Assembly (NCBI GenBank): GCA_963667465.2
Contig: CAXXDN010000002.1
Span: forward strand, 1,408,001-1,472,000
Source: Dehalococcoidia bacterium
GTDB taxonomy: Bacteria; Chloroflexota; Dehalococcoidia; UBA2979
Length of the DNA stretch: 64,000 nt
Reading direction: 5' to 3'
Position 1 is the first letter of the stretch; each line of letters opens with the position of its first letter. The notes beneath the pieces were generated by a model that saw nothing but the letters and a program-made list of their open reading frames with translations, did not search any database and was not told where the DNA came from. The position numbers were made by a program, and so were the translations under genes. Of this stretch, positions 10,101 through 28,319 are shown piece after piece.

Positions 10101-12011
10101 CTCCGACCCATCCACCTCGACCGTCGCCACCGCTTCATCCGAGGACACAGCACCGTAGGTGACCCCCTCGCCCTCGAAGTAGCTCGCTACGTCCTCGGCG
10201 TGCGTTGCGTCCTCGATGATCGTGACTGCCTCGATGCTGCCGACAGTCCCGGGCGCGGGCGGGACCACGGTGACGGCGAACCCTTGCTCTGCGCGCCCTC
10301 CGGGGCTCGTCGCCGTCACCGTCACCGTCGCGCTGCCCGCCGCGACGGCCGTGAGCGTGAGCTGCGATCCCGATCGCGAGGCGTGGACGATGCCGCTCGG
10401 GGAGACCGCCACCTCGTAGCCGGTGACATCGGCGCCGAAGTAGTCGGCGAGCTCGATCGTCCGCGTTCCGTCCTCCGCCAGGATGATCGAGGGGAGCTGG
10501 ACGGTGACGGAGAAGGACTGCCCGACGCTCCCGCCTGCGTTTGTCGCGGTCAGCGTCACCGTCGCGTCGCCCGCGCCGACCGCCGTGACCGTGACCGTCG
10601 TGCCCTCCACAGCCACGGTGGCGACCGCCGCTTTCGAGGACTCCGCCGTGTAGGTGATCCCCTCGCCGTTGAAGTGGGCCGCGGCGTCCTCCATGTGCGT
10701 CTCGCGCTCGGCGAGGATCACGGCCTCGATGCTGCCGACGGCCGCCGGCGCGGGCGGCAGCACCGTGACGGCCAAGCTATGCTCCGCAGTACCGTCCGCG
10801 CTCGTCACCTCGAGGGTGACCGTCGCGTTGCCAGAGGCGAGGGCGGTGAGCGTCAGCTGCGAGCCGGTCAGCGCGAGCCCGACGATGCCTGCCGGAGCGA
10901 CCGCTGCGCCGTAGCCCGTCGCCTCCTCTCCAAAATGGTCCGCGAGCTCGAGTGTCCGCGCGTCCCCTCGAGTGAGCGTCACGGCTGGGAGCTGGACAGT
11001 GACGGCGAATGACTGCCCGGCGCTGCCGCCGGCATTGGTGGCCGTCACCGTCACCGTCGCGTCGCCCGGCGCAACCGCCTTGACCGTGACCGCAGCGGCC
11101 TCCGTCGCCACGGTGGCGACCGCCACGTTCGAGGACTCTGCCGTGTAGGTGATCCCCTCGCCGCTGAAGTGGGCCGAAACATCCTCCACGTGCGTCTCGC
11201 CCTCGGCGAGGGTCACGGCCCCGATGCTGCCGACGGTCGCCGGAGCGGGCGGCAGCACTGTGACGGCGAAGCGCTGCTCCGCGCTTCCGCCCGAGTTGGT
11301 CGCAGTCACGGTGACCGTCGCGCTCCCGGCGGCGACCGCCTTCACTGTTACGTCCGCGCCCGCGACCTCGACCGTCGCGGCCGCCGTGTCCGAGGACGCT
11401 GCCGTGTAGGTGATCCCCGCGCCCTCGAAGTAGTCGGAGGCCGTCACGGCGTGGGTAACGCCCTCGGTGAGGGTGAGGGCGGCGATGCTGCCGGTTGCGG
11501 TGGGGGCAGCGACCATGGCCACCACAGTGACGGCGAAGCGCTTGCGCTCGCTGCCACGCAGCTTCCGGCCCCTGACTGTGACGGTCGCCGAGCCCACCGC
11601 AACCGGCTCGAGGGTGACCTCGGTCCCCGACCGCGAGATGCGGACGATGCCGTTGGGAGCTGCCGTTACCTCGTAGCCATGCACGGCATCGCTGAAGTAG
11701 CCCGCCACGTCGACCGTGTGAGAGGCGCCACCGAGCGTCAGCGAGACGTCCGGGAGGTCGTCTTCGGGCGTCGGCGTCTGCTGCGCCCGAACGCCATCGA
11801 GGGCGCCGAGCGGGTCACCGGCCAGGAGGCTCCGTGGGTGCAAGCGACTGTCTCGCGGCGCACTTGCCGCCTCGTCGGCAGCCTGGACTGTGGGAGCGGT
11901 GGATAGCAGGACGCACAAGCCGACGATCACGACAGCCGTGCACGCGCCACGCCAGCCCACAGCCAGCGGGACACCGAAGAGAGCGTGCGCGAGCCAGGCG
12001 CCCCTGGGCAC
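7110..12011 (-). CDS. Large secreted Ig-like (cadherin/Big-type) repeat protein, about 18 domains
   Basis: N-terminal hydrophobic segment ending VQA; about 87-aa repeats YF.G..ITY.A.SS...VATV...GSATVTVTATN.GGSA.Q.F.VTV; start uncertain (12011 GTG, or ATG at 12038/12068). Confidence 0.85.
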   Translation of the reverse strand: MPRGAWLAHALFGVPLAVGWRGACTAVVIVGLCVLLSTAPTVQAADEAASAPRDSRLHPRSLLAGDPLGALDGVRAQQTPTPEDDLPDVSLTLGGASHTVDVAGYFSDAVHGYEVTAAPNGIVRISRSGTEVTLEPVAVGSATVTVRGRKLRGSERKRFAVTVVAMVAAPTATGSIAALTLTEGVTHAVTASDYFEGAGITYTAASSDTAAATVEVAGADVTVKAVAAGSATVTVTATNSGGSAEQRFAVTVLPPAPATVGSIGAVTLAEGETHVEDVSAHFSGEGITYTAESSNVAVATVATEAAAVTVKAVAPGDATVTVTATNAGGSAGQSFAVTVQLPAVTLTRGDARTLELADHFGEEATGYGAAVAPAGIVGLALTGSQLTLTALASGNATVTLEVTSADGTAEHSLAVTVLPPAPAAVGSIEAVILAERETHMEDAAAHFNGEGITYTAESSKAAVATVAVEGTTVTVTAVGAGDATVTLTATNAGGSVGQSFSVTVQLPSIILAEDGTRTIELADYFGADVTGYEVAVSPSGIVHASRSGSQLTLTAVAAGSATVTVTATSPGGRAEQGFAVTVVPPAPGTVGSIEAVTIIEDATHAEDVASYFEGEGVTYGAVSSDEAVATVEVDGSEVTVTAVAAGSATVTVTATSPGGRAEQGFAVTVVPPAPGTVGSIEAVTIIEDATHAEDASSYFEGEGVTYGAMSSDTEVATVEVEGSEVTVTAVAAGSATVTVTATNGGGSAEQGFLVTVVSPAPVAVGSIEAVTIIEDATHAEDAASYFEGEGVTYGAMSSDTEVATVEVEGSEVTVTAVAAGSATVTVTATNGGGSAEQGFLVTVVSPAPVAVGSIEAVTIIEDATHTEDVASYFEGEGVTYGAVSSDTEVATVAVEGSEVTVTAVAAGSATVTVTATNGGGSAEQGFLVTVVSPAPVAVGSIEAVTIIEDATHAEDVASYFEGEGVTYGAMSSDTEVATVEVDGSEVTVTAVAAGSATVTVTATNMSGSEQQEFVVEVRLAAPLAIGAIADIALREDGVAREIELADQFGGVVEGYDASATPAGVVHVWESGGRLTLTPLASGVAVVTVAATNAGGVAQQAFLSTVRDGAPRALGTTPLVEIVEGDHSIIGVSSYFEGEGVTFAAESSRPGVVAVEAHGETTVVSGLAVGIALVTVTATNEAGSAAQELVVVVSRRAPKVRDGIEALTLTSGGAARTIDLSIHFSGSLTRFGAIAERTGIVHLWESAGRLTFTPLAAGSSTVTVWSANTGGTASQTFDVSVRPRAPRALASSTLLTLSMDGRPLSVELANYFGGNVERYALAATPGGVVHRWESGGLLTLTPLAAGLATLEVTALNAGGSAEQQFTVVVQPAPPTALGRIVAAPLAAGGAGQEIALADYFDGEVAHYEVVSRPDGILHLWESGGRLRLTPLSAGVATVTVTVSNGSGSASQIFAVAVAPAAPQTPGRAERIALAEGGAVREIDLGDYFGGEAARYHLTADRGGVVHGWESAGRLTLTPLAAGVATVVVTATNSAGSAEQPFIVTVGAAAPEALGRLEGSTLNEAGESHEIELADYFSGAIARYRVSADPAGVVHAWVSEGRLRLTPLAAGVAMVAVTASNEGGSARQEFAVVVE
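9003..10345. repeat. Intragenic near-identical 261-bp tandem repeats, about 5 copies
   Basis: The same blocks recur with a 261-bp period (shadow-ORF stops at 9114, 9375, 9636, 9897, 10158). Confidence 0.92.
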
Positions 12012-12149
12012 TGCTGAATCCCCCTGCGTCAGCAACATTTTCTTGCTAACACTAGTTGGTCTCAACATGAATGTGTGATACCGATTAGCTGCGCGGGACC
12101 ATTGGCGGGGGCCTCGTTCTCTCGCCAGCGCACAGGCAGGGGAATCGGA

Positions 12150-15100
12150 TTGCGGCGTTCCGCAACGCTCGCGCTGCTCGTCGGCGCGCTCGCACTCGCG
12201 GCCCTCAGCACCACCGGCAGCCACGCGCAGTCCCCGGCGGATCCGCAGAACCTCCTGCCCAACGGCGGCTTCGAGGACGGGCTGGACGGCTGGGTGCAGC
12301 CAGCCGGAGCAGTCCTCGAGGCTGTCGGCGAGCCCGTTCAGTCAGGCGCCGCCGCAGCGAAGGTCACTACGAGCGGGCCGGGCCGCGTGACGGTGATGAC
12401 CCAATACTGGGACGTGCGAGTCGCGCCGGGGGCCGCGCATACGCTCCGCGTGTGGCTTCGCAGCGACGCCCCCGCTGATCCCGCGGGCCCAAACGTCCTC
12501 CGGATGGAGGTGAGCCTCGAGTTCGTCGGCGCGGACGGAACCCGTGTCGGCGTTCCGACTACGCAGCGGATCGAGACTCCGACGGCGGGCTGGCAGCGCG
12601 TTGAGATCGCTCCAGTCGCGGCGCCGACCGACGCCACGTACGCTCGTCTGCGGGTGACCGCTGAGGTCTCCGCGAGCGGGGCCGTGTTCTACCTGGACTC
12701 GGCGGAACTCACGGCCGCCCCGCCGCCGCCCACGCCGACCCCGACCGAAACGCCGACGCCGACCGCTACTCCGACCCCGACCGAAACGCCGACCGTTACC
12801 CCGACCGCGACTACCGCAGCTGAGCCCACCTTCTTCGCCTCACTCACCAACGGCGACTTCGAACTGCCAGGCGCGACACCATACGGCTGGGGCGCGCACG
12901 CCGCCGAGGCCATCGTCACGCCCGCGGGCGGCTCGCGAACCGTCACGCTCACCTCGCGCGGGAGCGCGACGGCCTGGCTGCACCAGTCCTTCGCCGTCGA
13001 GGGCGGACACTGGTACGAGGCGTCCGGCCTGCTTCGGCCCGTGTCCAACGCCGCGCTCGCGCGCATCCGCATCGCCTGGTACGCCTCGGAAGACGCGAGC
13101 GGCGCGCAGCTCTCCACGGCCGACGCCGACGAGGTCCTCGGCGTCGGCGACTCCTCCACGACCGTCTCCACAGGCCCGATCCGTGCGCCCGACAACGCGC
13201 GGAGCGCGCAACTGCGAGTCATGCTCCGGCCCGCAAGCGTGGCGCCCGCCGTGCTGCGCGCGGACGACGTGCGCTTCGAACGCACCGCGCCGCCGCCGAG
13301 CACAACCGTCGTGAGGACTCCCGTGCCCGTGCCCACACCCGAGGCGATGCCAACATTCTTCGTCGCGCTGACGAACGGCGACTTCGAGCTGCCGGGCGAC
13401 ACGCCCTACGGCTGGCGCGCCCACGCGGGCTCGGCCCTCGTCGCCTCCAACGGGGGCTCACGCAGCGTCACGCTTACCTCGCGAGGGAGTTCCACAGCCT
13501 GGCTGCACCAGTCCTTCGCCATCGAGGGCGGACGCTGGTACGAGGTCAGTGGGCGGCTGCGCGCGGTCTCCAACGCCTCCCTCACCCGCATCCGCGTCGC
13601 CTGGTACGCCTCGGACGACGCGAGCGGCGCGCAGCTCTCCACGGACGACTCCGCCGAGCTCAGCGGCGTCGGCGACTCGTTCACGCCCGTCTCCACCGGC
13701 GCGATCCGCGCGCCCGACGAGGCTCGCAGCGCGGAGCTGCGGGTGATGGTCCGGCCGGCGAGCGCGGCTCCGGCCGTCCTGCGCGCCGACGACGTGTCCT
13801 TTGCCCGCACCGCTCCGCCGCCGCCGGACGTGACCTCCGAGGCTCCGCCCACGCAACGGTTGCGGCCGCCCGAGGCGGCGCCCTCGTTCTTCGTCGCCCT
13901 CACCAACGGCGACTTCGAGCTGCCGGGCGATACACCCTACGGCTGGCGCGCCCACGCCGGGAACGCCCTCGTCACTTCCGAGGGCGGCTCGCGCGCCGCC
14001 CTGCTCACGTCGGAGGGCGCGGCGATTGCCTGGCTGCACCAGTCGTGCGCCGTCGAGGGCGGGCGCTGGTACGAGGTAGCCGGGAGGCTCCAGCCCGGCG
14101 CGGGCGCGGACCTCGCCCGCATTCGCGTCGCCTGGTACGCCTCGGAAGACGCGAGCGGGCCGCAGCTCTCCATCGCGGACTCCGGGGAACTCGAGGGCGC
14201 GGGCGACTCCCTCGCCACCGTCACCACCGGCGCAATCCGCGCACCCGACGAGGCGCGCAGCGCACAACTCCGCATCATGCTGCGCCCCGCCGCTGAAGCC
14301 CCGGCAACCCTCGTCACCGATGACGTGTCCTTCACCCGCACCGCGCCTCCTGCACCCGCGACGCCCGACACGCCGCCGGAAGCCGCCTCCCTCGCTCCCG
14401 AGGAGGCGCCAGCGTTCTTCGCCTCCCTCACCAACGGCGACTTCGAGCTGCCCGGCGAGACGCCCTACGGCTGGCGCGCCCACGCCGGAGATGCCCTCGT
14501 GGTCTCCGAGGGCGCCTCGCGGGCTGCCGCGCTCACCGCACGCAGCGACACGACGGCCTGGCTGCACCAGCCCTTCGCCGTCGAGGGCGGCCGCTGGTAC
14601 GAGGCCACGGGTTCGCTGCGGCTCGGCGACAATGCCGCGCTCGCCCGCCTCCGCGTGGCCTGGTACGCCTCTGAAGACGCGAGCGGGCCACAGCTCTCCG
14701 TCGCCGACTCGGATGCCCTCGAGGGCGTTGGCGACTCCTTTGCCGCGGTCTCGACCGGCGCGATCCGCGCGCCCGACGAGGCTCGCAGTGCGCAACTGCG
14801 CGTCATGCTGCGTCCTGCGGGCGAGACTCCCGCCGTCCTGCACGCCGACGATGTCGCCTTTACGCCCGCCGCCCCGCCAGCGCCCGCCCCGACACCGCCT
14901 GCCCCCGCTGAGAGCCCCGCGTCGCCGTCGCCGGAAGCGGCGGCTCGGACGTCCCCTCCCCCCGCGGCGACCTCGGGCGAGGGCGCGCTGCCGGCGCTGG
15001 AGCCGTACCACCTGCGCAGCGCCTCGGCGGTGCTGCTGCGCATCACGGAACTGCTGCCCGATCCGGTCCAGAGCGGCCCCGATGCGGAGTACGAATGGAT

Positions 15101-15848
15101 CGAGGTCGCCAACGTGGGCGCGGCCGCCGTCCCGCTCGCGGGTCTGCTCCTCGCCGACAACCACGGCTGGATCGCCCTGCCCACGCTGACGCTGCCACCC
15201 GGCGGCGCGATCGTCGTCGCGGGGCCGCAGGCGGAGATCGGGGACGCCATCGCGCTGCGGCAGGGCAGCGGGCTGTTCAACGGCCTCGGCAACTCCGGTG
15301 ACCGCCTCGCACTCGCCACGACGGACGGCGCGATCATCGATGCGCTGTCCTACGGCAGCGACGGCAGCGTGGACGAGCCGCCGCTCAAGGCGCCGCCGGC
15401 CGGGCGCTCGCTGCAGCGCCGCTTCGACCCGGCCGGCCGGCTGATCGAGGCGGCCGTCGCCGAGCAGCCCTCCCCCGGACACCTCGAGGGGCCCGCCCCG
15501 CCGGATGGGATTGCAGCGCCGGAGGCGGGCGCGACATCGGCGGCACCGGCCGACGCTGCGGACGCCGGCGCCTACACGTCGCCCTCGAGTGTCGAGGCGC
15601 TGCGCAGGCAGCTCGACGCTGCTGCGAGCGCGGACCGGACGGCCTGGATCGTGCTCGCCTCAGTCGCCGCGGTCGCCCTCGTGGCCGCGGGCGCTCACCG
15701 CGCCCGCGAGCTGCTGCGCGCTGCCCCTCCCGCAGCAAGCGTCGCGCCCCCACGCCGTGGGCGGCGCTGGCGACGCTATGCGAGCGGAGAGCAGGTGCGA
15801 GGGCGCGCGCTCAGTCCTCGTCGTCGTCGTAGAACTCCTCCGGCATGA
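12150..15848 (+). CDS. Secreted/membrane-anchored protein with five CBM4/9-like domains, Pro/Thr linkers, a lamin-tail domain and a C-terminal TM helix
   Basis: Signal peptide (L)RRSATLALLVG...SHA; NLLPNGGFE plus four LTNGDFELPG repeats; LTD-like LRITELLPDP...EWIEVAN; AWIVLASVAAVALVAAG helix; TTG start after a GGGGAA RBS. Confidence 0.8.
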   Translation: MRRSATLALLVGALALAALSTTGSHAQSPADPQNLLPNGGFEDGLDGWVQPAGAVLEAVGEPVQSGAAAAKVTTSGPGRVTVMTQYWDVRVAPGAAHTLRVWLRSDAPADPAGPNVLRMEVSLEFVGADGTRVGVPTTQRIETPTAGWQRVEIAPVAAPTDATYARLRVTAEVSASGAVFYLDSAELTAAPPPPTPTPTETPTPTATPTPTETPTVTPTATTAAEPTFFASLTNGDFELPGATPYGWGAHAAEAIVTPAGGSRTVTLTSRGSATAWLHQSFAVEGGHWYEASGLLRPVSNAALARIRIAWYASEDASGAQLSTADADEVLGVGDSSTTVSTGPIRAPDNARSAQLRVMLRPASVAPAVLRADDVRFERTAPPPSTTVVRTPVPVPTPEAMPTFFVALTNGDFELPGDTPYGWRAHAGSALVASNGGSRSVTLTSRGSSTAWLHQSFAIEGGRWYEVSGRLRAVSNASLTRIRVAWYASDDASGAQLSTDDSAELSGVGDSFTPVSTGAIRAPDEARSAELRVMVRPASAAPAVLRADDVSFARTAPPPPDVTSEAPPTQRLRPPEAAPSFFVALTNGDFELPGDTPYGWRAHAGNALVTSEGGSRAALLTSEGAAIAWLHQSCAVEGGRWYEVAGRLQPGAGADLARIRVAWYASEDASGPQLSIADSGELEGAGDSLATVTTGAIRAPDEARSAQLRIMLRPAAEAPATLVTDDVSFTRTAPPAPATPDTPPEAASLAPEEAPAFFASLTNGDFELPGETPYGWRAHAGDALVVSEGASRAAALTARSDTTAWLHQPFAVEGGRWYEATGSLRLGDNAALARLRVAWYASEDASGPQLSVADSDALEGVGDSFAAVSTGAIRAPDEARSAQLRVMLRPAGETPAVLHADDVAFTPAAPPAPAPTPPAPAESPASPSPEAAARTSPPPAATSGEGALPALEPYHLRSASAVLLRITELLPDPVQSGPDAEYEWIEVANVGAAAVPLAGLLLADNHGWIALPTLTLPPGGAIVVAGPQAEIGDAIALRQGSGLFNGLGNSGDRLALATTDGAIIDALSYGSDGSVDEPPLKAPPAGRSLQRRFDPAGRLIEAAVAEQPSPGHLEGPAPPDGIAAPEAGATSAAPADAADAGAYTSPSSVEALRRQLDAAASADRTAWIVLASVAAVALVAAGAHRARELLRAAPPAASVAPPRRGRRWRRYASGEQVRGRALSPRRRRRTPPA

Positions 15849-17340: not shown

Positions 17341-18942
17341 CTACGCGGCGCCCGGCGTTCCCAGCCTCCGCAGCACCTCGTCGTGGAGCCGGCCGTTCGA
17401 GGCGATGCGCGGTCCCGCGCCCTCTGCTGCGGCGCCCGCGGCGTCCGTGATGCGGCCCCCGGCTTCCTCGACGATCGGGACCAGGGCGGCCACGTCCCAC
17501 GGGTGCAGATCGACGCCGTCCAGCATGACGTCGGCCGCGCCCTCGGCGACGAGGCAGAAGCCCCAGAAGTCGCCGAACCCGCGCACCCGCCAGGCCTCGC
17601 CGAGCAGCGCCCGCGCACCCGGCCAGCGCTCGAGGGTCGCGACCGTCTCGCCGTACACGACCTGCGCCGCTGACAGCGTCGCCGCGTCCGAGACGTGGAT
17701 GCGCTCGCCCGCGCCACGGGAGCCGGTCGCTCCCCGGTACGCCCCGAGGCCGTGGCCCGCCCACCAGCGCGTCCCGAGCGCCGGCGCGGAGACGACGCCG
17801 ACCTCGATGCTTCCGTCGCGCTCGCAGGCGATCAGCGTCCCCCACACGGGGATGCCGCGCATGTAGCTGTGAGTCCCGTCGATCGGGTCGAGGATCCAGC
17901 GCGCCTCGGCTTCCCCGGAGCCCTCGTCGTCGCCCTGCTCCTCGCCGAGGACGGCGTGCGCCGGGTAGCGCTCGGCGATGCGCTCGCGCAGCAACGCCTC
18001 GATCTCGCGGTCGGCAGGCGTCACGTACGTGCCGTCGGCCTTGCGCTCCACGGCGTGCTCGCCTCGATAGTCCCGCATCGCGATCGCGTCGGCGGCGTCC
18101 GCCAGCTCGAGGGCGAAGGCGAGGATGTCGGTGGTGGTGTCACTCGCCGCCTCGCGACCTGGCGCGGCCCGCCGAACGTCTTCCATCAATTCGAAGTGCG
18201 GAGTCTGGTAGCCCTGCTGCCGCTGTCCCCACGGGGAGTCGAGGAGAGTGCGCACCCGTGCAGCAAGCAGCTCGCCGTGGTCCTTCGACGGCAGGATCAC
18301 GAAGCACCGCGGGACTTTGCGACGCCAGCGCAGCACGATCGGATTGAGCGCTCGGCCGAAGCGGCCGCGGATGCCGTCGGTGAGCTCCGCGATCTGTTGA
18401 TCTATCGGCTGCCGCTTCGCGTGCTGGTAGATGACGATGCTCTGTCCTCGCTCCCAGCAGCGGGCGAGATCGTCGTGGTAGGCGTACTTCGGACCGTTTG
18501 ACGCTGTAGGGCTGGTACGGCGGGGTGCAAGACCATTGTCGGGATCGACGAAGACGACGTCCGCCTCTCGCACGGTGTCGAGCCCTCGCTGCAGCCAGCC
18601 GTCGCGCTTCAGCAAGCGATCGTTGGGCGACTCCCGGGCCTCAAAGCTCAGCGCTTCATCGAAGAATGCGGTCCCTTCCGGCAGGATTCGCCGTCTCTGC
18701 ACCGCGGCGACAGAGCGCTCGGCCGCGACAACATCTTGCAACTCGTCGAAGAGATCGGGGTCGCACCTGCGCAGGCCCGCTTCCGGCGAATCGAGGTAGT
18801 CCGTGATCCCACCGTCGCCGTCGCCCTCCTCGTCCGGCACGCGGTACCACAGCACGCCAAGGCGAAGATCGTCGCCGCAGAGGGCGCGCAGCAATCCGTA
18901 CTTGCCGAAGTCGCCGATGTCGCCCGCGTAGCGATCCTGCAT
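17341..18942 (-). CDS. hisN: Fusion: N-terminal uncharacterised Rossmann/RlmJ-like domain plus C-terminal inositol-monophosphatase-family histidinol-phosphatase
   Basis: C-terminal half: VTPADREIE, LGEE, WILDPIDGT, RGFGDFWG, HPWDVAA; N-terminal half: MQDRYAGDIGDFGKYGLLR...VFVDPDNG; single open frame. Confidence 0.8.
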   Translation of the reverse strand: MQDRYAGDIGDFGKYGLLRALCGDDLRLGVLWYRVPDEEGDGDGGITDYLDSPEAGLRRCDPDLFDELQDVVAAERSVAAVQRRRILPEGTAFFDEALSFEARESPNDRLLKRDGWLQRGLDTVREADVVFVDPDNGLAPRRTSPTASNGPKYAYHDDLARCWERGQSIVIYQHAKRQPIDQQIAELTDGIRGRFGRALNPIVLRWRRKVPRCFVILPSKDHGELLAARVRTLLDSPWGQRQQGYQTPHFELMEDVRRAAPGREAASDTTTDILAFALELADAADAIAMRDYRGEHAVERKADGTYVTPADREIEALLRERIAERYPAHAVLGEEQGDDEGSGEAEARWILDPIDGTHSYMRGIPVWGTLIACERDGSIEVGVVSAPALGTRWWAGHGLGAYRGATGSRGAGERIHVSDAATLSAAQVVYGETVATLERWPGARALLGEAWRVRGFGDFWGFCLVAEGAADVMLDGVDLHPWDVAALVPIVEEAGGRITDAAGAAAEGAGPRIASNGRLHDEVLRRLGTPGAA

Positions 18943-19874
18943 CAGGCCTCCCCCTTCGCCGGACCCTCACCCCCCGCCCTCTCCCGCAGGGGGAGAGGGG
19001 GCCGGATGTCCGCCTGCTCGCGAAACACGACGCCCTCGCACGACGCGAAGCGGCGGCGCATCACCGCGAACGCCTCCGGCGAGCTGTCGGCGAGGACGAA
19101 GCGGCGGCCGTGGCGCAGCGCCGCCTCGCCCGTCGTGCCGCTGCCCGCGACGAAGTCGCAGACCAGCCCGCCGGGCGGCGAGGAGGCGCGCACGATCCGC
19201 TCGAGGACACCGATCGGCTTCTGCGTCGGGTAGCCCAGCTTCTCCTTGCCCGTCGGGCTCACGATCGTGTGCCACCAGGTGTCCGTCGGCAGCTTGCCGC
19301 GCGCCGCCTTCTCGGGGCCCACGAGGCCGGGCGCCATGTAGGGGATGCGCTCGATGTCCTCGGCGTTGAAGCGGTTGCGCGCGGCGTCCTTCGCGTAGAA
19401 GAGGATGTTGTCGTGCTTCGCCGGCCAACGCCGCTTCGGCCGCGCGCCGTAGTCATAGGCCCAGATGATCTCGTTGACGAAGTTGACACGACCGAAGATC
19501 CCGTCCGCCAGCACCTTCGCGTAGTGCACCTCGCGGTAGTCGAGGTGCAGGTAGAGGCTGCCCGAGGGCGCGAGCACCCGCTGCGCCTCGACGAGGAACG
19601 GCTCGAGGAAGCCGAGGTAATCGTCGCGGTCGTCCTCGAAGGAGCGGCTGCCCAGCCGCTCGGTCTCGTAGCGACGCCCGCCGAAGCCGCTGCGGTCGCC
19701 CTCCCCGTCCGCGACCCGTCGCGTGCGCAGCTGCTCGCGCGTCTGCCGCCGGCCGGTGTTGAACGGCGGGTCGAGGTAGACGAGGTCGACGCTTTCGTCC
19801 TCGAGGGTGCGCGCGACCGCCACACCGTCAGCGCAGTGCACGACGCCGCGCGGCGCGGCAGTGCTGTCGCTCAC
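18942..19874 (-). CDS. Site-specific DNA methyltransferase (N6A/N4C, beta class), orphan
   Basis: Motif IV LVYLDPPF precedes YPTQKP and motif I DFVAGSGTT. Confidence 0.9.
   Translation of the reverse strand: MSDSTAAPRGVVHCADGVAVARTLEDESVDLVYLDPPFNTGRRQTREQLRTRRVADGEGDRSGFGGRRYETERLGSRSFEDDRDDYLGFLEPFLVEAQRVLAPSGSLYLHLDYREVHYAKVLADGIFGRVNFVNEIIWAYDYGARPKRRWPAKHDNILFYAKDAARNRFNAEDIERIPYMAPGLVGPEKAARGKLPTDTWWHTIVSPTGKEKLGYPTQKPIGVLERIVRASSPPGGLVCDFVAGSGTTGEAALRHGRRFVLADSSPEAFAVMRRRFASCEGVVFREQADIRPPLPLRERAGGEGPAKGEA
18964..19000. repeat. REP-like palindrome (CCCTCACCC..CCCTCTCCC..GGGAGAGGG family) inside the methyltransferase 3' end
   Basis: Similar to the intergenic copy at about 53454-53488; translated as PPLPLRERAGGEG. 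Confidence 0.7.
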
Positions 19875-19881
19875 GACGCCC

Positions 19882-20640
19882 TCACGCCGTCAGCGTGCCC
19901 TTGGTGCTCGGCACCTCGCCGGCGATGCGCGGATCGCGGCGAGTGGCGGCATCGAGGGCGCGCCCGAGCGCCTTGAAGGCGGCCTCGGCGATGTGGTGGT
20001 CGTTCGCGCCGGCGAGCTGGCGGACGTGCAGCGCGCAGCGCGCGCCCTGCGAGAACGATTGCAGGGCGTGGCCGATCATCTCCGTCGGCGCCTGGCCGAT
20101 TCGCTCGCTGCCCCAGTCGAAAGCGATCGCGGCGTAGGGACGGCCCGAACAGTCGACCACCGCCTGCACCAGCGCCTCGTCGAGCGGCACGGTCGCGTCG
20201 CCCATGCGCACGAGGCCGGAGCGGTCGCCCAGCGCCTCGTCGACGGCCGTGCCGAGCGCCAGCGCGCAGTCCTCCATCGTGTGGTGCTCGTCGACGTGCA
20301 GGTCGCCCTCGCAGCGCAGTTCGAGGTCGAAGCGGCCGTGCTTGGCGAACGCCTCGAGGACGTGGTCATAGAAGCCGACGCCGGTCGCGATCTCGGCGCG
20401 GCCGGTGCCGTCGATGTCGATCTCGACGTGGATGCGGGTCTCGGCGGTGCTGCGGTCGAGGGTGGCGCGGCGGGCGCCGCCATCGAGGTCGCGCTTGACG
20501 CGCTTGAGGTTGGTGTTGATCGCCTGGCGGGTCACGCCAAGCTCCTCGGCGAGCCGCGTCTGGCCGCCGAGCACGTCAAGCTCGCCCGCCTCGTAGGCCT
20601 CGCGGACGCGCAAATAGGTCTCGCTCTTGATCTCGACCAT
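19882..20640 (-). CDS. hisB: Imidazoleglycerol-phosphate dehydratase with an N-terminal helix-turn-helix extension
   Basis: IATGVGFYDHVL, GDLHVDEHHTMED, GANDHHIAEAAFKA, VPSTKGTL; extra about 55 aa containing QTRLAEELGVTRQAINTNLKR. Confidence 0.93.
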   Translation of the reverse strand: MVEIKSETYLRVREAYEAGELDVLGGQTRLAEELGVTRQAINTNLKRVKRDLDGGARRATLDRSTAETRIHVEIDIDGTGRAEIATGVGFYDHVLEAFAKHGRFDLELRCEGDLHVDEHHTMEDCALALGTAVDEALGDRSGLVRMGDATVPLDEALVQAVVDCSGRPYAAIAFDWGSERIGQAPTEMIGHALQSFSQGARCALHVRQLAGANDHHIAEAAFKALGRALDAATRRDPRIAGEVPSTKGTLTA

Positions 20641-20668
20641 GGGGCCGACCTTTCCGGTGCGCCCATCG

Positions 20669-20697
20669 AGCGTACGGCTTAAGTTAAGCTCTGTCTA
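20669..20697 (-). promoter_or_regulatory. Internal sigma70-type promoter TAGACA-N17-TACGCT with palindrome GCTTAA-C-TTAAGC in the spacer
   Basis: Exact 17-bp spacing in an AT-rich hisC-hisB intergenic patch; palindrome at 20677-20689. Confidence 0.7.
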
Positions 20698-20734
20698 CCA
20701 CAAACAAGGATCATGTGGTTGACGCTTGTTGACT

Positions 20735-21904
20735 TCAGCCACTTTTGCTACCTGGCTGCCCCTCAATGTCTTGACGCGCCTCGGACAGTGCCGCGAGCAG
20801 ACGCGCGCTGTCAGCGGGAGTGCCGACCGAGATGCGGACGTGGTCGCGCAGGCGCTCGTGGCCGAAGAAGCGCACGAAGACGCCGCGCCGCGCCAGCGCC
20901 TCGCGCAGCGCCGCCCCGCTGCCGGCGGTGAGGCGGCAGAGCAGGAAGTTGGCCTGCGAGGGCACGGGCTCCAGCCAGCCGCCCGCGCGCAGCTGCACCG
21001 CCAGGCGGTCACGCTCCCCGGCGATCTCGCAGGCGCGCTCGTCGAGCAGCGCCGCGTCCTCCAGCGAGGCGAGCGCGGCCGCCTCGGCGGCGGTGCTCAC
21101 GCCGTAGGGCTGCTTGCACTGCATCAGCAGCGCGGCGACCGAGGCCGGCATCACGCCGTAGCCGACACGCAGCCCGGCCAGACCGGCCCACTTGCTGAAC
21201 GTGCGCAGCACGATCAGCGGCGCGCCTCCCTCGCTCGTTGCGTCGGCCACGAGGCTCGGCGATCCGCTGTGCACTCCCCCGTAGCCGCTTGCGAACTCCA
21301 CGTAGGCCTCGTCGATGACAACGATCGCGCCGCTCGCGCGCAGGCGCTCGGCTGCGCCCTGCGGCAGCAGCCCGCCCGTCGGGTTGTTGGGCGAGGGCAG
21401 GAAGACGGCCTTCGCGCCCTCGCAGGCCGCGAGGAGCGCGTCGAGGTCCACCGACCAGTCGCCGCGCCTCGGCACGTCGACCAGCTCGGCACCCGCGATC
21501 TCCGCGCCGAAGGGATACATCCCGAACGTCGGCGAGGCGATCACGACACGGTCGCCCGCATCGACGAAGATGCGGAAGACGAGGTCGATGATCTCGTCGG
21601 CGCCCGCACCGGCGACGATGCACTCCGGCGGCACTTCATGGCGCGCGCCGAGGGCGTCACGCAGCCTTCGCTGCTCCGGGTCCGGGTAGCGGTGCGCGGC
21701 GTAGCCGCCCGCGAGCGCCGCCAGGGCTCGCGGGGAAGCGCCGTAGGGGTTCTCGTTGCCGTCGAGCTTGACGATCGCCTCCGGCGCGACGCCGTAGCGG
21801 GCGGCGAGCTGCGCGGGCGGGTCGATCGGCTCGTAGCCGCGCAGCGAGCGCAGCGGCGGGCGCAGCGCGCCCTCGAGGTCGAAGCTCGCGGAGTCCGTCA
21901 TCAC
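20735..21904 (-). CDS. hisC: Histidinol-phosphate aminotransferase
   Basis: KLDGNENP, YPDP, SPNNPTG, DEAYVEF, RTFSKWAGLAGLRVGY. Confidence 0.95.
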   Translation of the reverse strand: MMTDSASFDLEGALRPPLRSLRGYEPIDPPAQLAARYGVAPEAIVKLDGNENPYGASPRALAALAGGYAAHRYPDPEQRRLRDALGARHEVPPECIVAGAGADEIIDLVFRIFVDAGDRVVIASPTFGMYPFGAEIAGAELVDVPRRGDWSVDLDALLAACEGAKAVFLPSPNNPTGGLLPQGAAERLRASGAIVVIDEAYVEFASGYGGVHSGSPSLVADATSEGGAPLIVLRTFSKWAGLAGLRVGYGVMPASVAALLMQCKQPYGVSTAAEAAALASLEDAALLDERACEIAGERDRLAVQLRAGGWLEPVPSQANFLLCRLTAGSGAALREALARRGVFVRFFGHERLRDHVRISVGTPADSARLLAALSEARQDIEGQPGSKSG

Positions 21905-23244
21905 AGTCCCTCCAGCCTGCGCTCGATCGAGCGGGCGTGGCCGGTCAGTCCCTCGGCGCGGGCCAGCCGCGCGGCGTGCGGCCCGAGCTCGGCGAGTGCG
22001 CCTTCCGGCAGCGCGATCACGGAGCTGACCTTCAGGAAGTCGAGCACCGAGAGTGGCGAGGCGTAACGCGCCGAGCCGCCGGTGGGCATGACGTGGCTCG
22101 GCCCCGCGACGTAGTCGCCGAGCACCTCGGGCGAGTGGTCGCCGACGAAGACGCCGCCCGCCTGCGTGATCTGCGGCGCGATCGCCTCCGGCTCGCGCGT
22201 CAGCAGGCAGAGGTGCTCCGGCGCGAACTCGTTGGCGAGCGCCACCGCCTCGTCGAGGCTGCCCGCGACGACCGCCCCACCGCCCTCGACCGCCGCGCGC
22301 GCGATCGCGCCTCGCTCGAGATCTGCGAGCTGGCGCTCGACCTCGGCCTGCACCGCCTCGGCGTGCGCGCGCGTGGTCGTGATCAGCACCGGCCTCGCGA
22401 GGGCGTCGTGCTCCGCCTGCGCCAGCAGGTCTGCGGCGCAGAGGTCGGGCGCGGCCTCGTCGTCGGCGAGCACGAGCGTCTCGGTCGGGCCATAGATCGC
22501 GTCGATGCCGACCTCGCCGAAGAGCTGCTGCTTGGCGAGCGTCACGAAGACGTTGCCCGGCCCGAAGATCTTGTCGGCGCGCGGGATCGTCTCCGTGCCC
22601 AGCGCCAGCGCCGCGATCGCCTGCGCGCCCGAGGCGCGGAAGATGCGCTGCACCCCGGCGAGCTCGGCCGCCACCAGCTTCAGCGGGTGCACGCTGCCGT
22701 CCTCGCGCGCGGCCGTGACGCCGATGCGATCCGGCACGCCCGCGACGAGTCCGGGCAGCGCCGTGTGCAGCACCGAGGAGGGCAGCACCGCCACGCTGCC
22801 GGTCATATAGACGCCCGCCCTCACGATCGGCTGTACCGTCATGCCGACGCCGTCCTCGAGGAAGGAGCGCGGGCCGTGCGCCAACTGGCGCTCGTGGTAG
22901 TGGCGCACGCGGTCGGCGGCGAAGCGCAGCGAGTCGAGCAGCTCGTCGGGCGTCTCCGCGAACGCCGCCTCGATCTCCTCGCGGCCCACCTCGAGTGGCG
23001 CGTCCGCGGAGCCGTCGAAGCGCTGCGAGAAGGCGCGTACCGCTGCGTCGCCCTCCTCGCGCACTCGCGCGACGATCCGCGCGACCACCTCGGAGGCGCT
23101 CAGGTCCGCGCCGAACGTCTCGCGGATCGAGGCGCGCACGGGCGGCGGCAGCGCGGGGTCGCCAAGCGGGTCGCGCCGCAGCACGCCGGCGCGAGCGGCC
23201 GTGGCGCCCTCGACGATGCGCAGCGCGGGCGTGGTGGCAGCCAT
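21901..23244 (-). CDS. hisD: Histidinol dehydrogenase
   Basis: GAQAIAALALGTETIP, GPGNVFV, DLLAQAEHD, APEHL, GDYVAGPSHVMPTGG. Confidence 0.95.
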   Translation of the reverse strand: MAATTPALRIVEGATAARAGVLRRDPLGDPALPPPVRASIRETFGADLSASEVVARIVARVREEGDAAVRAFSQRFDGSADAPLEVGREEIEAAFAETPDELLDSLRFAADRVRHYHERQLAHGPRSFLEDGVGMTVQPIVRAGVYMTGSVAVLPSSVLHTALPGLVAGVPDRIGVTAAREDGSVHPLKLVAAELAGVQRIFRASGAQAIAALALGTETIPRADKIFGPGNVFVTLAKQQLFGEVGIDAIYGPTETLVLADDEAAPDLCAADLLAQAEHDALARPVLITTTRAHAEAVQAEVERQLADLERGAIARAAVEGGGAVVAGSLDEAVALANEFAPEHLCLLTREPEAIAPQITQAGGVFVGDHSPEVLGDYVAGPSHVMPTGGSARYASPLSVLDFLKVSSVIALPEGALAELGPHAARLARAEGLTGHARSIERRLEGL

Positions 23245-23999
23245 CAGCGCCGCGGCAGGTATTCGCGGAGGCGCTCGGCGGCCAGCTCGGTCGCCTCCTC
23301 GAGGTAGCGCGTGACCTCCTGCTCGGTGACGTGCGAGAGCGACTCCTGGATCAGCCCGCCCGGGTTCTGCGCGACCTCCTCGACCTCCTCCTCGCTGAAA
23401 CCGCCGCGCCGCAAGTGGATCTGCATCACGCGCGGGAAGCGCTCCCAGTCCGGGCGCTGGTAGGTGATGCCGCGTGTGAAGTCGCGCCACTCCGGCCACA
23501 GCCGTTCCTCGATGAAGCCGACGGCGATCGCCGCCTCGGTCGTGTCGATGGCGGTGCGAATCTCCGCGAGGGCGGCGTCGTTCTCCAGCTCGCGACGGTT
23601 CATCTCGTACTGCAGGGCGCGGTCGAGGATGTTGGCGCGCAGATCGCCGCCGAGCGACGAGCGCTCACCGAAGAAGCGGCGGTAGACGCTCTGGATGTAG
23701 TGCTCGTCCATCAGCAGGTGCGTGACGTAGCCCGCCACGAACGCCCTCGTGCTCTCGTTGAGGCCGGCGACGTTCCGGAGGTCCGGGTGCTCCTCGAACA
23801 TGCGCGCCACCGAGTCCTGCTGCTCGAAGTCGTCGAGCTCGAAGAAGTGCGTCAGACGGCGATCCACGCGCAGCAGCACGCGGATGTCCGGCGCCGTGGA
23901 GCCCAGGTAGTAGGACCCGCGATCGGCGTCGATGCACGGGTGGCCGAGACGGTCGGCCAGCCCGTAGGCACTGGCGAGGTGCGATCCCAGTGAGGGCAC
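23244..23999 (-). CDS. Zinc-dependent phospholipase C-like metal-dependent hydrolase
   Basis: N-terminal xPxxxSH, YYLGSTAPD, THF, GYVTHLLMD; its stop overlaps the hisD start. Confidence 0.7.
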   Translation of the reverse strand: MPSLGSHLASAYGLADRLGHPCIDADRGSYYLGSTAPDIRVLLRVDRRLTHFFELDDFEQQDSVARMFEEHPDLRNVAGLNESTRAFVAGYVTHLLMDEHYIQSVYRRFFGERSSLGGDLRANILDRALQYEMNRRELENDAALAEIRTAIDTTEAAIAVGFIEERLWPEWRDFTRGITYQRPDWERFPRVMQIHLRRGGFSEEEVEEVAQNPGGLIQESLSHVTEQEVTRYLEEATELAAERLREYLPRR

Positions 24000-24000
24000 G

Positions 24001-25440
24001 TCAGACCTCCGCGGCTCCCGCCCGCAGCCGCTCGACCAGATCGTCGCGCAGCTCGCCGCGCGCACCCGGCGGACGCTCCGTCGATCCGATCGCGCAGTTC
24101 GTCGACTCCATGATGACGTCGATCATACGGAGCCGGTTGGCGCGCAGGGTGGAGCCCGTCTCCGTGCCCTCGATCAGGATCTCGGCGTCGTCCGGCACGA
24201 AGCCCTCGGATGCCCCGGAGATCGGCAGCACCTGGTAGCGCCCGAGGTGCCGCTCGCGCGCGTAGTGGTCGGCCAGCGCAACGTACTCCGAGGCGACGCG
24301 GATCGGCCGCTTTGGGTCGTCGCGCCGCCACCACGCAATCGCCTCGGCGATCGTCTCGGCGGGCACGGCCTCGGGCACGACGGCTCCGAGGCGATAGCGG
24401 CTGCGGCGCAGGTCGCACAGCTCGGCGACCGGCGAGAGCGGGAACGCCGCGCGGTGCGCAGCCAGCCAGTCGCGCCCCGTCAGCGCGAGGTCGAAGCAGC
24501 CGAGCGCGACGGCCTGCGGCATGTCCTGCGGGCGGATCACCTTTACCTCGAAGCCCTCGATACCGGAGCGCGGGTGGCGGTCGGTGGCGCCGTCGCCGTA
24601 GCCCTCGAAGCGAAGTCCGGCGGAGGCAAGCGCCTCGACGGTGTGCCGCTGCGCGTGCCCGTCCGGCAGCGCAAGCCGGAAGACGCCACGATCGTTATCC
24701 GAGGTCCGCGAGGCGATGCCCTCAAGGCCGCCGGTGCGGCCGTTGCCGCGCGGCAGCGGGCGCGCCTCGGAGGCGTCCCGGTCGCCCGCCGGCAGCGCGA
24801 GCAGCGGCCCGAGCGCCTCCGCGAGATCGCGACTCGCGAGCGCGTCGCGGTTTGCGACGAGCGTGGCCGAGCCGCGCTGCACCTCGGCGACGACGGCCAG
24901 CCCCTCGCGGGCGAGGACGGCGCCGGCCGCCGCCGCGTCGAGCGGCACGCTGAGGATCGCGGCGTCGGCGTCCTCGGGTGGCCACGCCTCGGGCTGGCCC
25001 CAGACCTCGATCACGCGGTAGTCCGGCACGCGCAGGTAGTTGAGCGCACGCGCCGCCAGGTTCGGGTGCGTCGTCGTCACCCGCACGCCCGGCGTCGCCG
25101 CGAGGCGGTCGAGCGTGACGCCCTCGGGCGCCGCGAGCACGAGCCGCCGGCCTCCGAGGTCGAGCGGACGCAGCGGCGTCAGCGAGTCGAGCGGGTAGCG
25201 CGCGAGCAGTTCATCGATCCAGGCGCGGCTGGTGATGCCGAGATCGTACTGGCCGAGCGCGACCTGGATTGGAATGTCCTCCTCGGCGAAGACGCGCACG
25301 ACCACGCCCGGCCGGCCTTCGACAGGGAAGCGGTAGGCGCGCGATCCGCCCTCGTAGCCCTCGACGGCGAAGCCGGCCGCTCGCAGGCGCTCGGCGAGCG
25401 GCGCGCGCAGGTCGCCGCGCGGCAGCGCGACGCGGATCAC
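24001..25440 (-). CDS. hisG: ATP phosphoribosyltransferase with two tandem short-form HisG domains
   Basis: IRVALPRG...DIPIQVALGQYDLGIT and RLALPDG...IRPQDMPQAVALGCFDLALTG...ETGSTLRANRL. Confidence 0.88.
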   Translation of the reverse strand: MIRVALPRGDLRAPLAERLRAAGFAVEGYEGGSRAYRFPVEGRPGVVVRVFAEEDIPIQVALGQYDLGITSRAWIDELLARYPLDSLTPLRPLDLGGRRLVLAAPEGVTLDRLAATPGVRVTTTHPNLAARALNYLRVPDYRVIEVWGQPEAWPPEDADAAILSVPLDAAAAGAVLAREGLAVVAEVQRGSATLVANRDALASRDLAEALGPLLALPAGDRDASEARPLPRGNGRTGGLEGIASRTSDNDRGVFRLALPDGHAQRHTVEALASAGLRFEGYGDGATDRHPRSGIEGFEVKVIRPQDMPQAVALGCFDLALTGRDWLAAHRAAFPLSPVAELCDLRRSRYRLGAVVPEAVPAETIAEAIAWWRRDDPKRPIRVASEYVALADHYARERHLGRYQVLPISGASEGFVPDDAEILIEGTETGSTLRANRLRMIDVIMESTNCAIGSTERPPGARGELRDDLVERLRAGAAEV

Positions 25441-26542: not shown

Positions 26543-26578
26543 ACACAGAAACGCCGCGACGGGGTTCCGCCGCGGCGT
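26543..26578 (-). terminator. Attenuator terminator hairpin upstream of hisZ
   Basis: ACGCCGCGGCGG-AACC-CCGTCGCGGCGT 12-bp stem (one G-U) followed by TTCTGTGT. Confidence 0.75.
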
Positions 26579-26600
26579 GTCACTGGCATCAGCGTTCCGG

Positions 26601-26693
26601 CTATCGATGCAAGCGGCTTCGCGGCGGCGACTCCTCGCCCCGATGGCTATGCGCATGCGCGCGCCCGCCGCTGATCTCGTACGTACGCATCAT
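26601..26693 (-). CDS. hisL: Putative his leader peptide MMRTYEISGGRAHAHSHRGEESPPRSRLHR
   Basis: 30 codons with four His, all CAT; lies between the promoter and the terminator upstream of the his operon. Confidence 0.7.
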   Translation of the reverse strand: MMRTYEISGGRAHAHSHRGEESPPRSRLHR

Positions 26694-26697
26694 GCTG

Positions 26698-26726
26698 ATC
26701 GTAGGAGCACCGCCCTGCGAGGGCAA
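26698..26726 (-). promoter_or_regulatory. his operon promoter TTGCCC-N17-TACGAT
   Basis: Exact 17-bp spacer; the two leader ATGs lie 4 and 7 nt after the -10 box (leaderless). Confidence 0.7.
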
Positions 26727-26765: not shown

Positions 26766-27011
26766 CTAGGCGAAAATCGGGAACGAATGTCCACTCTCGC
26801 CGATCAGTTGCTCCACCTGCTGAGCGAAAGGCATGTCGCTCAAGTCGATCCCGGTGCTCGCACCGATGAACTCAACACCGAGGACTCCTCCATCGGCGGA
26901 GTAGTCGAGGATTCGAAGGTCGTCAAGGAACGCCTGGCTCGCCGGGGACTCGCCATCCCGCAACCGCACGTACAGGATGTCCCCTTCGTGATCGTAGGTC
27001 GCCTCCGGCAT
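26766..27011 (-). CDS. DUF2283 domain protein (putative antitoxin)
   Basis: TYDHEGDILYVRL...LDYSADGGVLGVEFI pattern; 81 aa, acidic. Confidence 0.8.
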   Translation of the reverse strand: MPEATYDHEGDILYVRLRDGESPASQAFLDDLRILDYSADGGVLGVEFIGASTGIDLSDMPFAQQVEQLIGESGHSFPIFA

Positions 27012-27012
27012 G

Positions 27013-27261
27013 TCAGTTCTCCCAGGCCGCCGTCGTCACGAGGGGCGGGTCCGAATCCCGCTCGACATAGACGCGGAGGTCGCGTCCATTCCACTCTCCA
27101 ATATAGATCACCGCTGGCCTCGCCCCCGGACGGGGTCCCGCCGGACGGCTAGTGTGGTAATGCTCCAGGACCGCGTCAACTGCCCGAACGGGTATGCCCC
27201 GCTCTTGCATGCGCCAGCGCGCATGGGAGTTGATCCGCCTACGAGCAGCCCCTTCCGCCAA
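27013..27261 (-). CDS. DUF4258 domain protein (putative toxin)
   Basis: SHARWRMQERGI...LRVYV...LVTT; basic; directly upstream of DUF2283; start uncertain. Confidence 0.72.
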   Translation of the reverse strand: MAEGAARRRINSHARWRMQERGIPVRAVDAVLEHYHTSRPAGPRPGARPAVIYIGEWNGRDLRVYVERDSDPPLVTTAAWEN

Positions 27262-27455: not shown

Positions 27456-28268
27456 TCACAGTGTCGTCACGTCACCGGCGGCGAACCTGCGCTCCGAACC
27501 GTCGTCGAGGCGCAGCTTCAGCTCGCCCGTCGCGGTGACGCCAACGGCGACACCTTCGACGGCGTCTCCGCCGGCCTCGGGACCGGCGGGGGCGAGCTGC
27601 ACGGGCCGCCCGATCGTCTCGAGGCGCACGCTCCAGTCGGCGAGGAACGCCGCCGGGTCGCGCTCGATCTGCACGACGCGCCGCTCAAGCGCCCTCGACA
27701 GCTCGGCGAGCAGCGTCTCGGCGTCCGGCGGCGTAACGCCCGCGCCCTCGATGCTCGTCGCGCGCGCCCGCTCGTCGGGCGGCAGTCCTGCTGTCGCAGC
27801 CTCGCGCAGGTTCACGCCGATACCGAGGAACACCTCGACGTTCCCGCGCGCGGACCGCGCGTCGGCGAGGATGCCCGCCAGCTTGCGGCCCCCGGCCAGT
27901 ACGTCGTTCGGCCACTTGAGCGTCACGCCGAGGCCGCAAGCCGCCTCGACCGCCTCGGCGGTGGCGAGGCCGCCGGCGGCGCTGAGCAGCGGCGTGTGCG
28001 GTCCGGCGGCGGGGCAGAGGTGGAAGGTGACGAGCAGCGCGGCGCCAGGCGCCGCAACCCAGCGCCGCCCGAAACGCCCTCGGCCGGCGGTCTGCTCGCC
28101 CGCGAGGTAGGCGTCGCCGCATCCCGCCGTGCCGCGCCCGTCCGCGCCCGCACGCGCGTCGTCCATCGTCGAGGTCGTAGCGGCGACGGCGTGGACCCGC
28201 GCGCCGATGCGCCCGCCGCCGCGCAGCGCGGCAAAGCGCTCGTAATCGAAAGCTGCGTCGGCCACCAT
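27456..28268 (-). CDS. birA: Biotin--[acetyl-CoA-carboxylase] ligase (no HTH)
   Basis: STMD, EQTAGRGRFGRRW, LKWPNDV, RKLAGIL, GIGVN. Confidence 0.92.
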   Translation of the reverse strand: MVADAAFDYERFAALRGGGRIGARVHAVAATTSTMDDARAGADGRGTAGCGDAYLAGEQTAGRGRFGRRWVAAPGAALLVTFHLCPAAGPHTPLLSAAGGLATAEAVEAACGLGVTLKWPNDVLAGGRKLAGILADARSARGNVEVFLGIGVNLREAATAGLPPDERARATSIEGAGVTPPDAETLLAELSRALERRVVQIERDPAAFLADWSVRLETIGRPVQLAPAGPEAGGDAVEGVAVGVTATGELKLRLDDGSERRFAAGDVTTL

Positions 28269-28288
28269 CAGCGGAACCTCCCGGACGC

Positions 28289-28319
28289 AGAACACCCCGG
28301 CCGATGGCCGGGGTGTTCT
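28289..28319. terminator. Perfect 14-bp hairpin, probable intrinsic terminator
   Basis: AGAACACCCCGGCC-GAT-GGCCGGGGTGTTCT. Confidence 0.75.

Follow-up and report, generated by a model that had tools for sequence, protein, structure and literature searches.

The HTH-HisB Fusion

In a Dehalococcoidia bacterium (Chloroflexota), the histidine biosynthesis gene hisB lies on the minus strand between hisC and a DNA methyltransferase (MTase) gene, followed by a gene, DUF-hisN, in which a domain without family match is joined to hisN (Table 1; coordinates refer to the 64-kb stretch of DNA analyzed here, the window). Its product carries a small helix-turn-helix (HTH) domain in front of the imidazoleglycerol-phosphate dehydratase (IGPD) domain, and the 94-nt region from the hisC stop (20735) to the hisB ATG contains a promoter-like motif and several repeats. 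A first-pass annotation, made from the sequence alone, had proposed an HTH in this extension, which includes QTRLAEELGVTRQAINTNLKR (residues 27–47 of the open reading frame (ORF) 19882–20640), as well as an operator in the gene's own promoter.

By sequence comparison and structural modeling, the HTH-HisB fusion is real, and consists of an HTH, a short linker, and an intact IGPD enzyme domain. The extension is predicted to fold as had been supposed: both AlphaFold2 models gave a three-helix bundle with identical helices (residues 7–17, 26–34, and 38–52). In the later model, built on a 73-row alignment (pLDDT 92.5, pTM 0.83), the helices are followed by a coil of about 4–5 residues and then the IGPD fold, and in the HTH part the block pLDDT was 85–92 for residues 11–60 and 74 for residues 1–10. 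Four of the 73 rows, all standalone HTHs, were misaligned onto IGPD in this second input, so the HTH model depends on the five fusion rows; a 5-row model made before it represented IGPD poorly (pLDDT 44). Structural neighbors of the N-terminal part include sigma-4, KorA, AsnC, and homeodomain-type HTHs, with middling scores (Z 5–6.8), and the turn residue G35 is invariant in the 7 aligned rows of the HTH. No Pfam HTH family reached its gathering cut-off (YdaS 28.6 against 30, Cro 16.8 against 32.7, KORA 16 against 26.7, HTH_11 18.8 against 25, HTH_3 13.2 against 23); the weak YdaS, Cro, and HTH_11 matches span residues 22–51, and the HTH also matched PHROG 7061 (E 1.9e-4). A viral fold search gave nothing at E < 0.001, and a complex prediction with two copies of residues 1–60 scored 0.00, which weighs neither way.

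The enzyme domain leaves less room for doubt. Residues 86–229 match PF00475 at E 4e-59 (199.2 bits against a cut-off of 27), the NCBIfam HisB equivalogs NF002116, NF002111, and NF002114 all exceed their cut-offs, and the domain model superposes on 6fwh_A with a TM of 0.96 and an rmsd of 1.6. All 15 conserved IGPD positions that were checked, including both HHxxE motifs, are retained in the five fusions and in all 118 plain relatives; these are presumably the metal and phosphate ligands. Translation does not appear to start at the domain junction, since there is no in-frame ATG, GTG, or TTG between codons 36 and 62.

Constraint on the HTH is clear from comparison of the fusion members, among which it varies no more than the enzyme does. 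Pairs of members differ at 0–2 of 45 positions in residues 6–50, at 0–5 of 6 in residues 51–56, and at 4–22 of 196 in the IGPD domain. Over HTH codons 1–50, synonymous and non-synonymous changes numbered 5 and 1 between the window and a second Dehalococcoidia locus, L002, 4 and 0 between L002 and a third, L001, and 1 and 1 between the window and L001.

Distribution and Origin

The HTH-IGPD combination recurs in independent genomes. Among the matches listed, hisB carries the HTH in 2 of 80 GTDB loci (L001 and L002, both Dehalococcoidia), and four further 90% clusters bear the fusion; these are the clusters that a search with the HTH region matched among 22 candidates, all of them HisB fusions. 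An exhaustive HTH search of 1.84 billion representatives gave seven matches, of which one was a fusion, five were small HTH proteins, and the last was a repeat protein matched spuriously. A 4-row profile run on 2242 short candidates matched six, four of them clear relatives of 63–87 aa; these standalone proteins (P0007, P0008, P0011, and P0012) carry the same HTH signature, whereas P0009, P0010, P0013, and P0014 match the generic turn alone and were excluded from the profile. P0006, considered as an HTH relative on the basis of six matching stretches (E 6.7e-15), was rejected as a repeat protein without an HTH.

The 252-aa length and the same in-frame junction are shared by the window, L001, L002, and cluster P0002 (76 members), and the junction also by cluster P0005 (7 members); P0003 and P0004, whose C-termini are frameshifted, were excluded from the tree and counts. 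A quick tree of 61 rows places the five fusions together (SH-aLRT 98) amid plain Chloroflexota HisBs. Among the 120 nearest IGPD clusters listed, the top two carry the HTH and the other 118 are plain proteins of 197–208 aa; plain sister HisBs without the HTH are 79–85% identical. In nine of 11 non-fusion loci (L003–L013) hisC and hisB overlap, the others having a short gap (L005) or a long one (L010). Sisters without the HTH and mostly overlapping hisC–hisB pairs indicate that the promoter-plus-HTH block was a gain at the hisC–hisB junction. By these sequence comparisons the fusion is a recent one, restricted to a single Dehalococcoidia clade among the matches listed.

How the junction formed may be glimpsed in L002, where it resembles the common sister start MGERRA (6 of 118) put out of frame by one base; coming from one genome, this is only a hint. 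HTH-HisB fusions may also have arisen more than once: an Atlas cluster of 269-aa IGPD proteins, mostly from Chloroflexota where known, has HTH_3 in 12% of its 67 members, but with a score of 0.80 it is a lead below the 0.9 mark, as is an unnamed cluster of 62 aa.

A Predicted Internal Promoter Before hisB

The motifs named by the first-pass annotation were all found on the minus strand (TAGACA at 20697–20692, a 17-nt spacer, and TACGCT at 20674–20669, with GTTGAC at 20718 and 20728 when read on the plus strand), and its proposal that the first two form a promoter is supported. TAGACA-N17-TACGCT is identical in the window, L001, and L002; the candidate promoter of hisZ in L003 also has TACGCT; and 10 of 1000 dinucleotide shuffles of the 94-nt region yielded a promoter matching it in quality. 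Its -10 spacing places the predicted transcription start near 20662.

A generic sigma-70 scan of 19500–21500 returned no sites, missing this one because TACGCT matches TATAAT at three of six positions. A lineage profile was trained on the hisZ promoters of eight relatives alone (TTG-n3, N17–18, TA-n3-T) in versions with an 8-nt or a 6-nt -10 element. The hisB site ranked 2nd (8-nt) or 6th (6-nt) of 127,930 positions in the window, and with the 6-nt version 2nd in L001 and 1st in L002, each of 25,442. In nine of 10 non-fusion loci, the 200 nt before hisB scored 4.6 or less with the 6-nt profile.

A divergent plus-strand promoter starting from the TTGAC copies was considered and rejected, as no well-spaced -10 was seen by eye in the window or L002 and none was among the 25 best profile matches in the window. 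In L001, a minus-strand profile match at 5913 is in the top five, without TA at -10. An Rfam scan of the window found no family at the hisC–hisB locus.

A Candidate Operator

The single 6-bp repeats in the promoter region are each ordinary, at chance level. GCTTAA-C-TTAAGC, earlier proposed as an operator, keeps 6, 4, and 2 of its 6 symmetric pairs in the window, L001, and L002, and a 6-bp palindrome occurs in 56 of 1000 shuffles; for ACCACA-N11-TGTGGT, the second proposal, the corresponding figures are 6, 5, and 1 of 6, with a 6-bp spaced inverted repeat in 271 of 1000. Neither is supported as an operator. The GTTGAC direct repeats fare better in part: a 6-mer direct repeat as such appears in 361 of 1000 shuffles, but these copies belong to a wider element that is conserved.

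The surviving candidate, identified by sequence comparison, is this wider element, a dyad made up of GTCAAC-like boxes that overlaps the -35 hexamer. The boxes are laid out as two tandem pairs with a 10-bp period, facing each other around 20708. The elements that persist are box 2 (GTCAAC/T), box 3 (GTAGAC), and box 4 (YTTRAC), plus box 1 in the window and L001. Nine of the 12 positions in boxes 2 and 4 are unchanged between the window and L002, compared with 10 of 30 positions outside the boxes (Fisher p 0.017); at fourfold sites of the gene the figure is 125 of 143. The dyad pattern occurs once in the 64-kb window, at the gene's own promoter, and is absent at hisZ. An extended 27-nt inverted repeat (20676–20702/20714–20740) was matched in none of 200 shuffles, its length having been picked after the repeat was seen.

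An RNA-structure reading of the dyad was rejected (z -1.45, -1.14, and -0.71), as no compensatory changes were seen by eye and the long hairpin is not formed in L002. At the place of box 1, L002 has a 7-bp inverted repeat (5895–5925) directly after a DUF2283 gene.

Table 1. Features of the hisB region and his operon in the window, with the evidence for each.
Feature	Coordinates	Strand	Evidence and conservation
HTH-hisB fusion gene, 252 aa	19882..20640	-	ORF list
N-terminal tri-helical HTH, residues 1–52	20485..20640	-	AlphaFold2, weak profile matches, structural neighbors
Short variable linker, residues 53–56	20473..20484	-	Differences between fusions; coil in model
IGPD (HisB) domain, residues 57–252	19885..20472	-	PF00475, NCBIfam, fold match
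Weak Shine-Dalgarno-like GGAAAGG, short 5′ untranslated region (UTR)	20649..20655	-	Duplex energy
Candidate -35 hexamer TAGACA (overlaps box 3)	20692..20697	-	6/6 in window, L001, L002; lineage promoter profile
Candidate -10 hexamer TACGCT	20669..20674	-	6/6 in three genomes
Candidate box 1 GTCAAC	20728..20733	-	6/6 in L001, 3/6 in L002
Candidate box 2 GTCAAC	20718..20723	-	6/6 in L001, 5/6 in L002
Candidate box 3 GTAGAC, inverted copy on -35	20693..20698	-	6/6 in three genomes; -35 alone may explain conservation
Candidate box 4 CTTAAC, inverted copy (CTTGAC in L001, TTTGAC in L002)	20683..20688	-	5/6 in L001, 4/6 in L002
Palindrome GCTTAA-C-TTAAGC of the first-pass annotation	20677..20689	.	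Not conserved
ACCACA-N11-TGTGGT of the first-pass annotation	20697..20719	.	Inner part of dyad, lost in L002
hisC	20735..21904	-	PF00155; 94 nt upstream of hisB
N6/N4 DNA methyltransferase gene	18942..19874	-	PF01555, PADLOC MTase_II; 7 nt downstream of hisB
Domain of about 264 aa without family match, fused to IMPase-type hisN	17341..18942	-	PF00459; TIGR02067 below cut-off
Operon head: candidate promoter (-35 at 26726), His-rich leader ORF 26601–26693, hairpin 26551–26578	26551..26726	-	

A Putative Autorepressor and Its Alternatives

Comparison among genomes establishes the fusion, the constraint on its HTH, its derived origin, and the conserved promoter motif, and the fold is available as a prediction. 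The reading that we prefer, and to which we give an even chance, is an autorepressor-enzyme that limits its own promoter (hisB-MTase-hisN) and requires no metabolite signal. Comparison shows that the ancestor had overlapping hisC and hisB within an operon of the order hisZ-hisG-x-hisD-hisC-hisB-(variable)-hisN. Between the two genes, in one clade, came a module consisting of a sigma-70-type promoter and a small HTH gene, which fused in frame to hisB and left the enzyme intact; the source of this module may have been a phage or mobile HTH gene, small and self-regulating. Transcription from about 20662 would drive hisB-MTase-hisN, escaping the attenuator at hisZ. The HTH would bind the GTCAAC-like boxes of the dyad centered on 20708 and, since the -35 and the spacer lie under boxes 3 and 4, could thereby block RNA polymerase. 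IGPD is described as forming 24-mers with an external N-terminal sheet (PMC10978614); with this sheet outward, the oligomer could present several HTHs and gain avidity for widely spaced half-sites. The outcome would be negative feedback on protein level.

Several observations weigh against autorepression. The evidence for the operator comes from three promoter sequences, and the boxes were partly defined from the same three; in a less circular test, on positions paired in the window's own dyad, p varied with the region used, at 0.034, 0.14, or 0.19. L002, with an insertion upstream, has lost box 1. GTCAA/TTGAC is also the -35 consensus, and the boxes, resembling it, may therefore be promoter relics. 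The promoter itself ranked 25th in L001 and 20th in L002 with the 8-nt profile, and with the 6-nt profile one non-fusion locus (L009) scores 10.7 before hisB, as against 11.4 for the fusion promoter. On the protein side, the HTH has a neutral net charge (nine K/R, nine D/E), and the case for its being more conserved than IGPD is borderline (p 0.067 and 0.046). At codon 36, an in-frame GTG outdoes the ATG in its Shine-Dalgarno (SD)-like match (-7.6 vs. -4.8 to -6.2), so HTH-less chains are possible; the SD duplex of the fusion ATG reaches -4.8 kcal/mol, compared with -9.8 to -11.2 for hisC, DUF-hisN, and amtB.

The HTH could instead be kept for a role other than operator binding, such as translation initiation, folding, non-specific nucleoid tethering, or binding of the conserved 5′ UTR, in which case the repeats would be promoter remnants and the promoter constitutive. 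The chance-level palindromes of the first-pass annotation, which decay in orthologs, and the likeness of the boxes to -35 hexamers fit this explanation, as does a GGGC...GCCC stem around the SD that is predicted in all three genomes. Moreover, HisB needs the start codon of the HTH, so the frame stays open, and genes in this region fuse readily: the two parts of DUF-hisN are one gene in the window but two in L002 and L003. Upkeep of the frame alone, however, would not explain why 43–45 of 45 residues stay fixed, the recognition helix among them, next to a drifting linker, and RNA folds of the upstream region are no better than those of shuffles (z -0.17 to -1.45), with L002 lacking the long hairpin. 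We regard such a role as unlikely.

A second alternative is a trigger enzyme, in which DNA binding would be switched by Mn2+-dependent trimer-to-24-mer assembly, or by imidazoleglycerol phosphate (IGP) or imidazole-acetol phosphate. IGPD from some species is reported to fall into inactive trimers without Mn2+ (PMC10978614, PMC7284861), whereas the Medicago enzyme is described as forming no trimers even in 40 mM EDTA (PMC10978614). In favor of this reading, the linker is about four residues long. Eight positions, seven of them within IGPD, are fixed in all five fusions and occur in less than 15% of the 118 plain relatives, and RbkR, BirA, NadR, and PutA provide precedents (PMC5397151). Against this stand the lack of a second dyad in the 64 kb, including at hisZ, a candidate attenuator that already covers histidine control, the linker's being the most variable segment of the protein, and the youth of the fusion in its one clade; we consider a trigger enzyme unlikely. 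An early-stage version of it, in which a mobile HTH captured on the outside of the IGPD cage would have its number reaching the four-box operator set by Mn2+- or substrate-driven assembly, appears distinctly unlikely by our estimate. If true, the oligomer state of IGPD would be a transcriptional switch.

Action of the HTH mainly in trans, with hisB as a mere carrier and targets outside the window (a mobile element, a toxin-antitoxin system, methyltransferase promoters, or hisH/A/F/I), is very unlikely. The HTH proteins closest to it are small, standalone, and phage-like, a DUF4258/DUF2283 pair directly precedes the promoter in L002, and an MTase gene lies downstream of hisB. However, the sole dyad within the window is at the gene's own promoter, the MTase is present without the HTH in L003, and a plasmid tblastn gave no match; phage matches are weak Cro-like ones (E 0.3–0.4). 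Lastly, an assembly or frameshift artefact joining two genes is hardly credible: P0003 and P0004, with their frameshifted C-terminal halves, suggest that some source records hold indel errors, but independent assemblies with the same in-frame junction (the window, L001, L002, P0002, and P0005) refute it.

Relation to Known Systems

The trigger enzymes RbkR, BirA, NadR, and PutA act as dimers or small oligomers, and RbkR in particular combines a winged HTH with a regulon and control by a ligand. The putative autorepressor differs from RbkR in its wingless three-helix HTH, its one site seen in 64 kb, and its restriction to one young clade, and from all four in sitting on an enzyme type that forms 24-mers. 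If the preferred reading is right, it would work as they do; it is like them (PMC5397151) in having a DNA-binding domain on an intact enzyme, and this fusion, as seen in the sequence and the predicted structure, is the sole feature of the class found in HTH-HisB. The HisNB fusion of a HAD phosphatase to IGPD (PMC1963479) is alike in placing an N-terminal domain on IGPD, and many HisNB-type fusions are found among loci L035–L080. In HTH-HisB the HTH takes the place of HAD, and the phosphatase is a separate IMPase-type hisN; the fusion protein had no HAD match in Pfam, and NF003937 scored 224 against a cut-off of 443.

The HTH shares its scaffold and recognition helix with KorA/TrfB (Z 5.4 to 5clv), Cro/YdaS, YlxM, and sigma-4-like HTHs. 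Its R38 aligns with Arg48 of KorA, but T43 occupies the position of Gln53, described as crucial in KorA (PMC2665229), and IGPD follows helix 3 where KorA has a C-terminal dimerization module. HisR, a histidine repressor of the TrpR family, is likewise a DNA-binding regulator tied to his genes; it is reported to be standalone and histidine-binding, with a 20-bp palindrome of another consensus (PMC9413887), and no TrpR-family domain was among the Pfam matches of the fusion protein at E up to 0.1. HTH_3 also scored below its cut-off, as given above. Restriction-modification controller (C) proteins consist of an HTH_3 domain tied to an MTase/REase pair. A controller of this type was rejected for HTH-HisB on account of that HTH_3 score, the presence of the MTase without the HTH in L003, and the lack of a PADLOC match for the fusion.

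No description of an HTH-HisB fusion was found among the open-access papers that the searches listed, and it is apparently a narrow, so far undescribed variant of enzyme-regulator fusion. Known fusions of this kind are old and their origins blurred. Here, the state before (overlapping hisC–hisB and a plain HisB) coexists with the state after (promoter, dyad, and fusion), which makes the locus a direct test case for the birth of a fusion. As a repressor, a 24-meric cage bearing a DNA-binding domain would have an unusual architecture; without specific binding, HTH-HisB would be a lineage-restricted curiosity.

The his Operon and Neighboring Genes

The order hisZ-hisG-x-hisD-hisC-hisB is common to L001–L010 and L012. 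At its head, His-rich leader ORFs are found in the window and in all eight relatives whose sequence covers the region (the L001 locus is truncated at this point); a hairpin together with a T run was called before hisZ in the window, L001, and six of those eight. The region is present in L003–L009 and L012 (first 370 nt), and had no Rfam match. By analogy, leader and terminator form a candidate histidine attenuator, which is common to these Chloroflexota and a separate small addition. The enterobacterial his operon is described as having a primary promoter with leader-peptide attenuation plus internal promoters (PMC10138114); the internal promoter considered here differs in its setting, newly gained intergenic sequence, and in having a candidate operator and a putative repressor joined to the enzyme, and would bypass the attenuator.

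The MTase gene and DUF-hisN are likely co-transcribed with hisB. The domain of about 264 aa in DUF-hisN, which had no Pfam, PHROG, or PADLOC match, is replaced by another gene in L001. The hisB–hisN gap is filled by different genes in different relatives; together with the DUF4258/DUF2283 pair between hisC and the promoter in L002 (5410–5858, plus strand), this indicates that this part of the operon accepts insertions. Another DUF4258/DUF2283 pair lies at 26766–27261 (minus strand) in the window, so that these putative toxin-antitoxin cassettes occupy two different places in the his regions of the window and L002.

HisG (24001–25440, minus strand; about 479 aa) has an apparent internal duplication, with two PF01634 stretches, also seen in relatives. 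A zinc-dependent phospholipase C-like gene (23244–24065, minus strand; PF00882 under the cut-off) is kept between hisG and hisD in L001–L012, and a biotin protein ligase without an N-terminal HTH (27456–28295, minus strand) lies directly upstream of the operon. Elsewhere in the window, the sole Rfam match is a c-di-AMP riboswitch (RF00379, 60.9 bits; 54642–54778, plus strand). Two large proteins were noted by eye: one of 1704 aa with tandem beta-rich repeats (7110–12224, minus strand) and one of 1257 aa with repeated carbohydrate-binding-like modules (12075–15848, plus strand).

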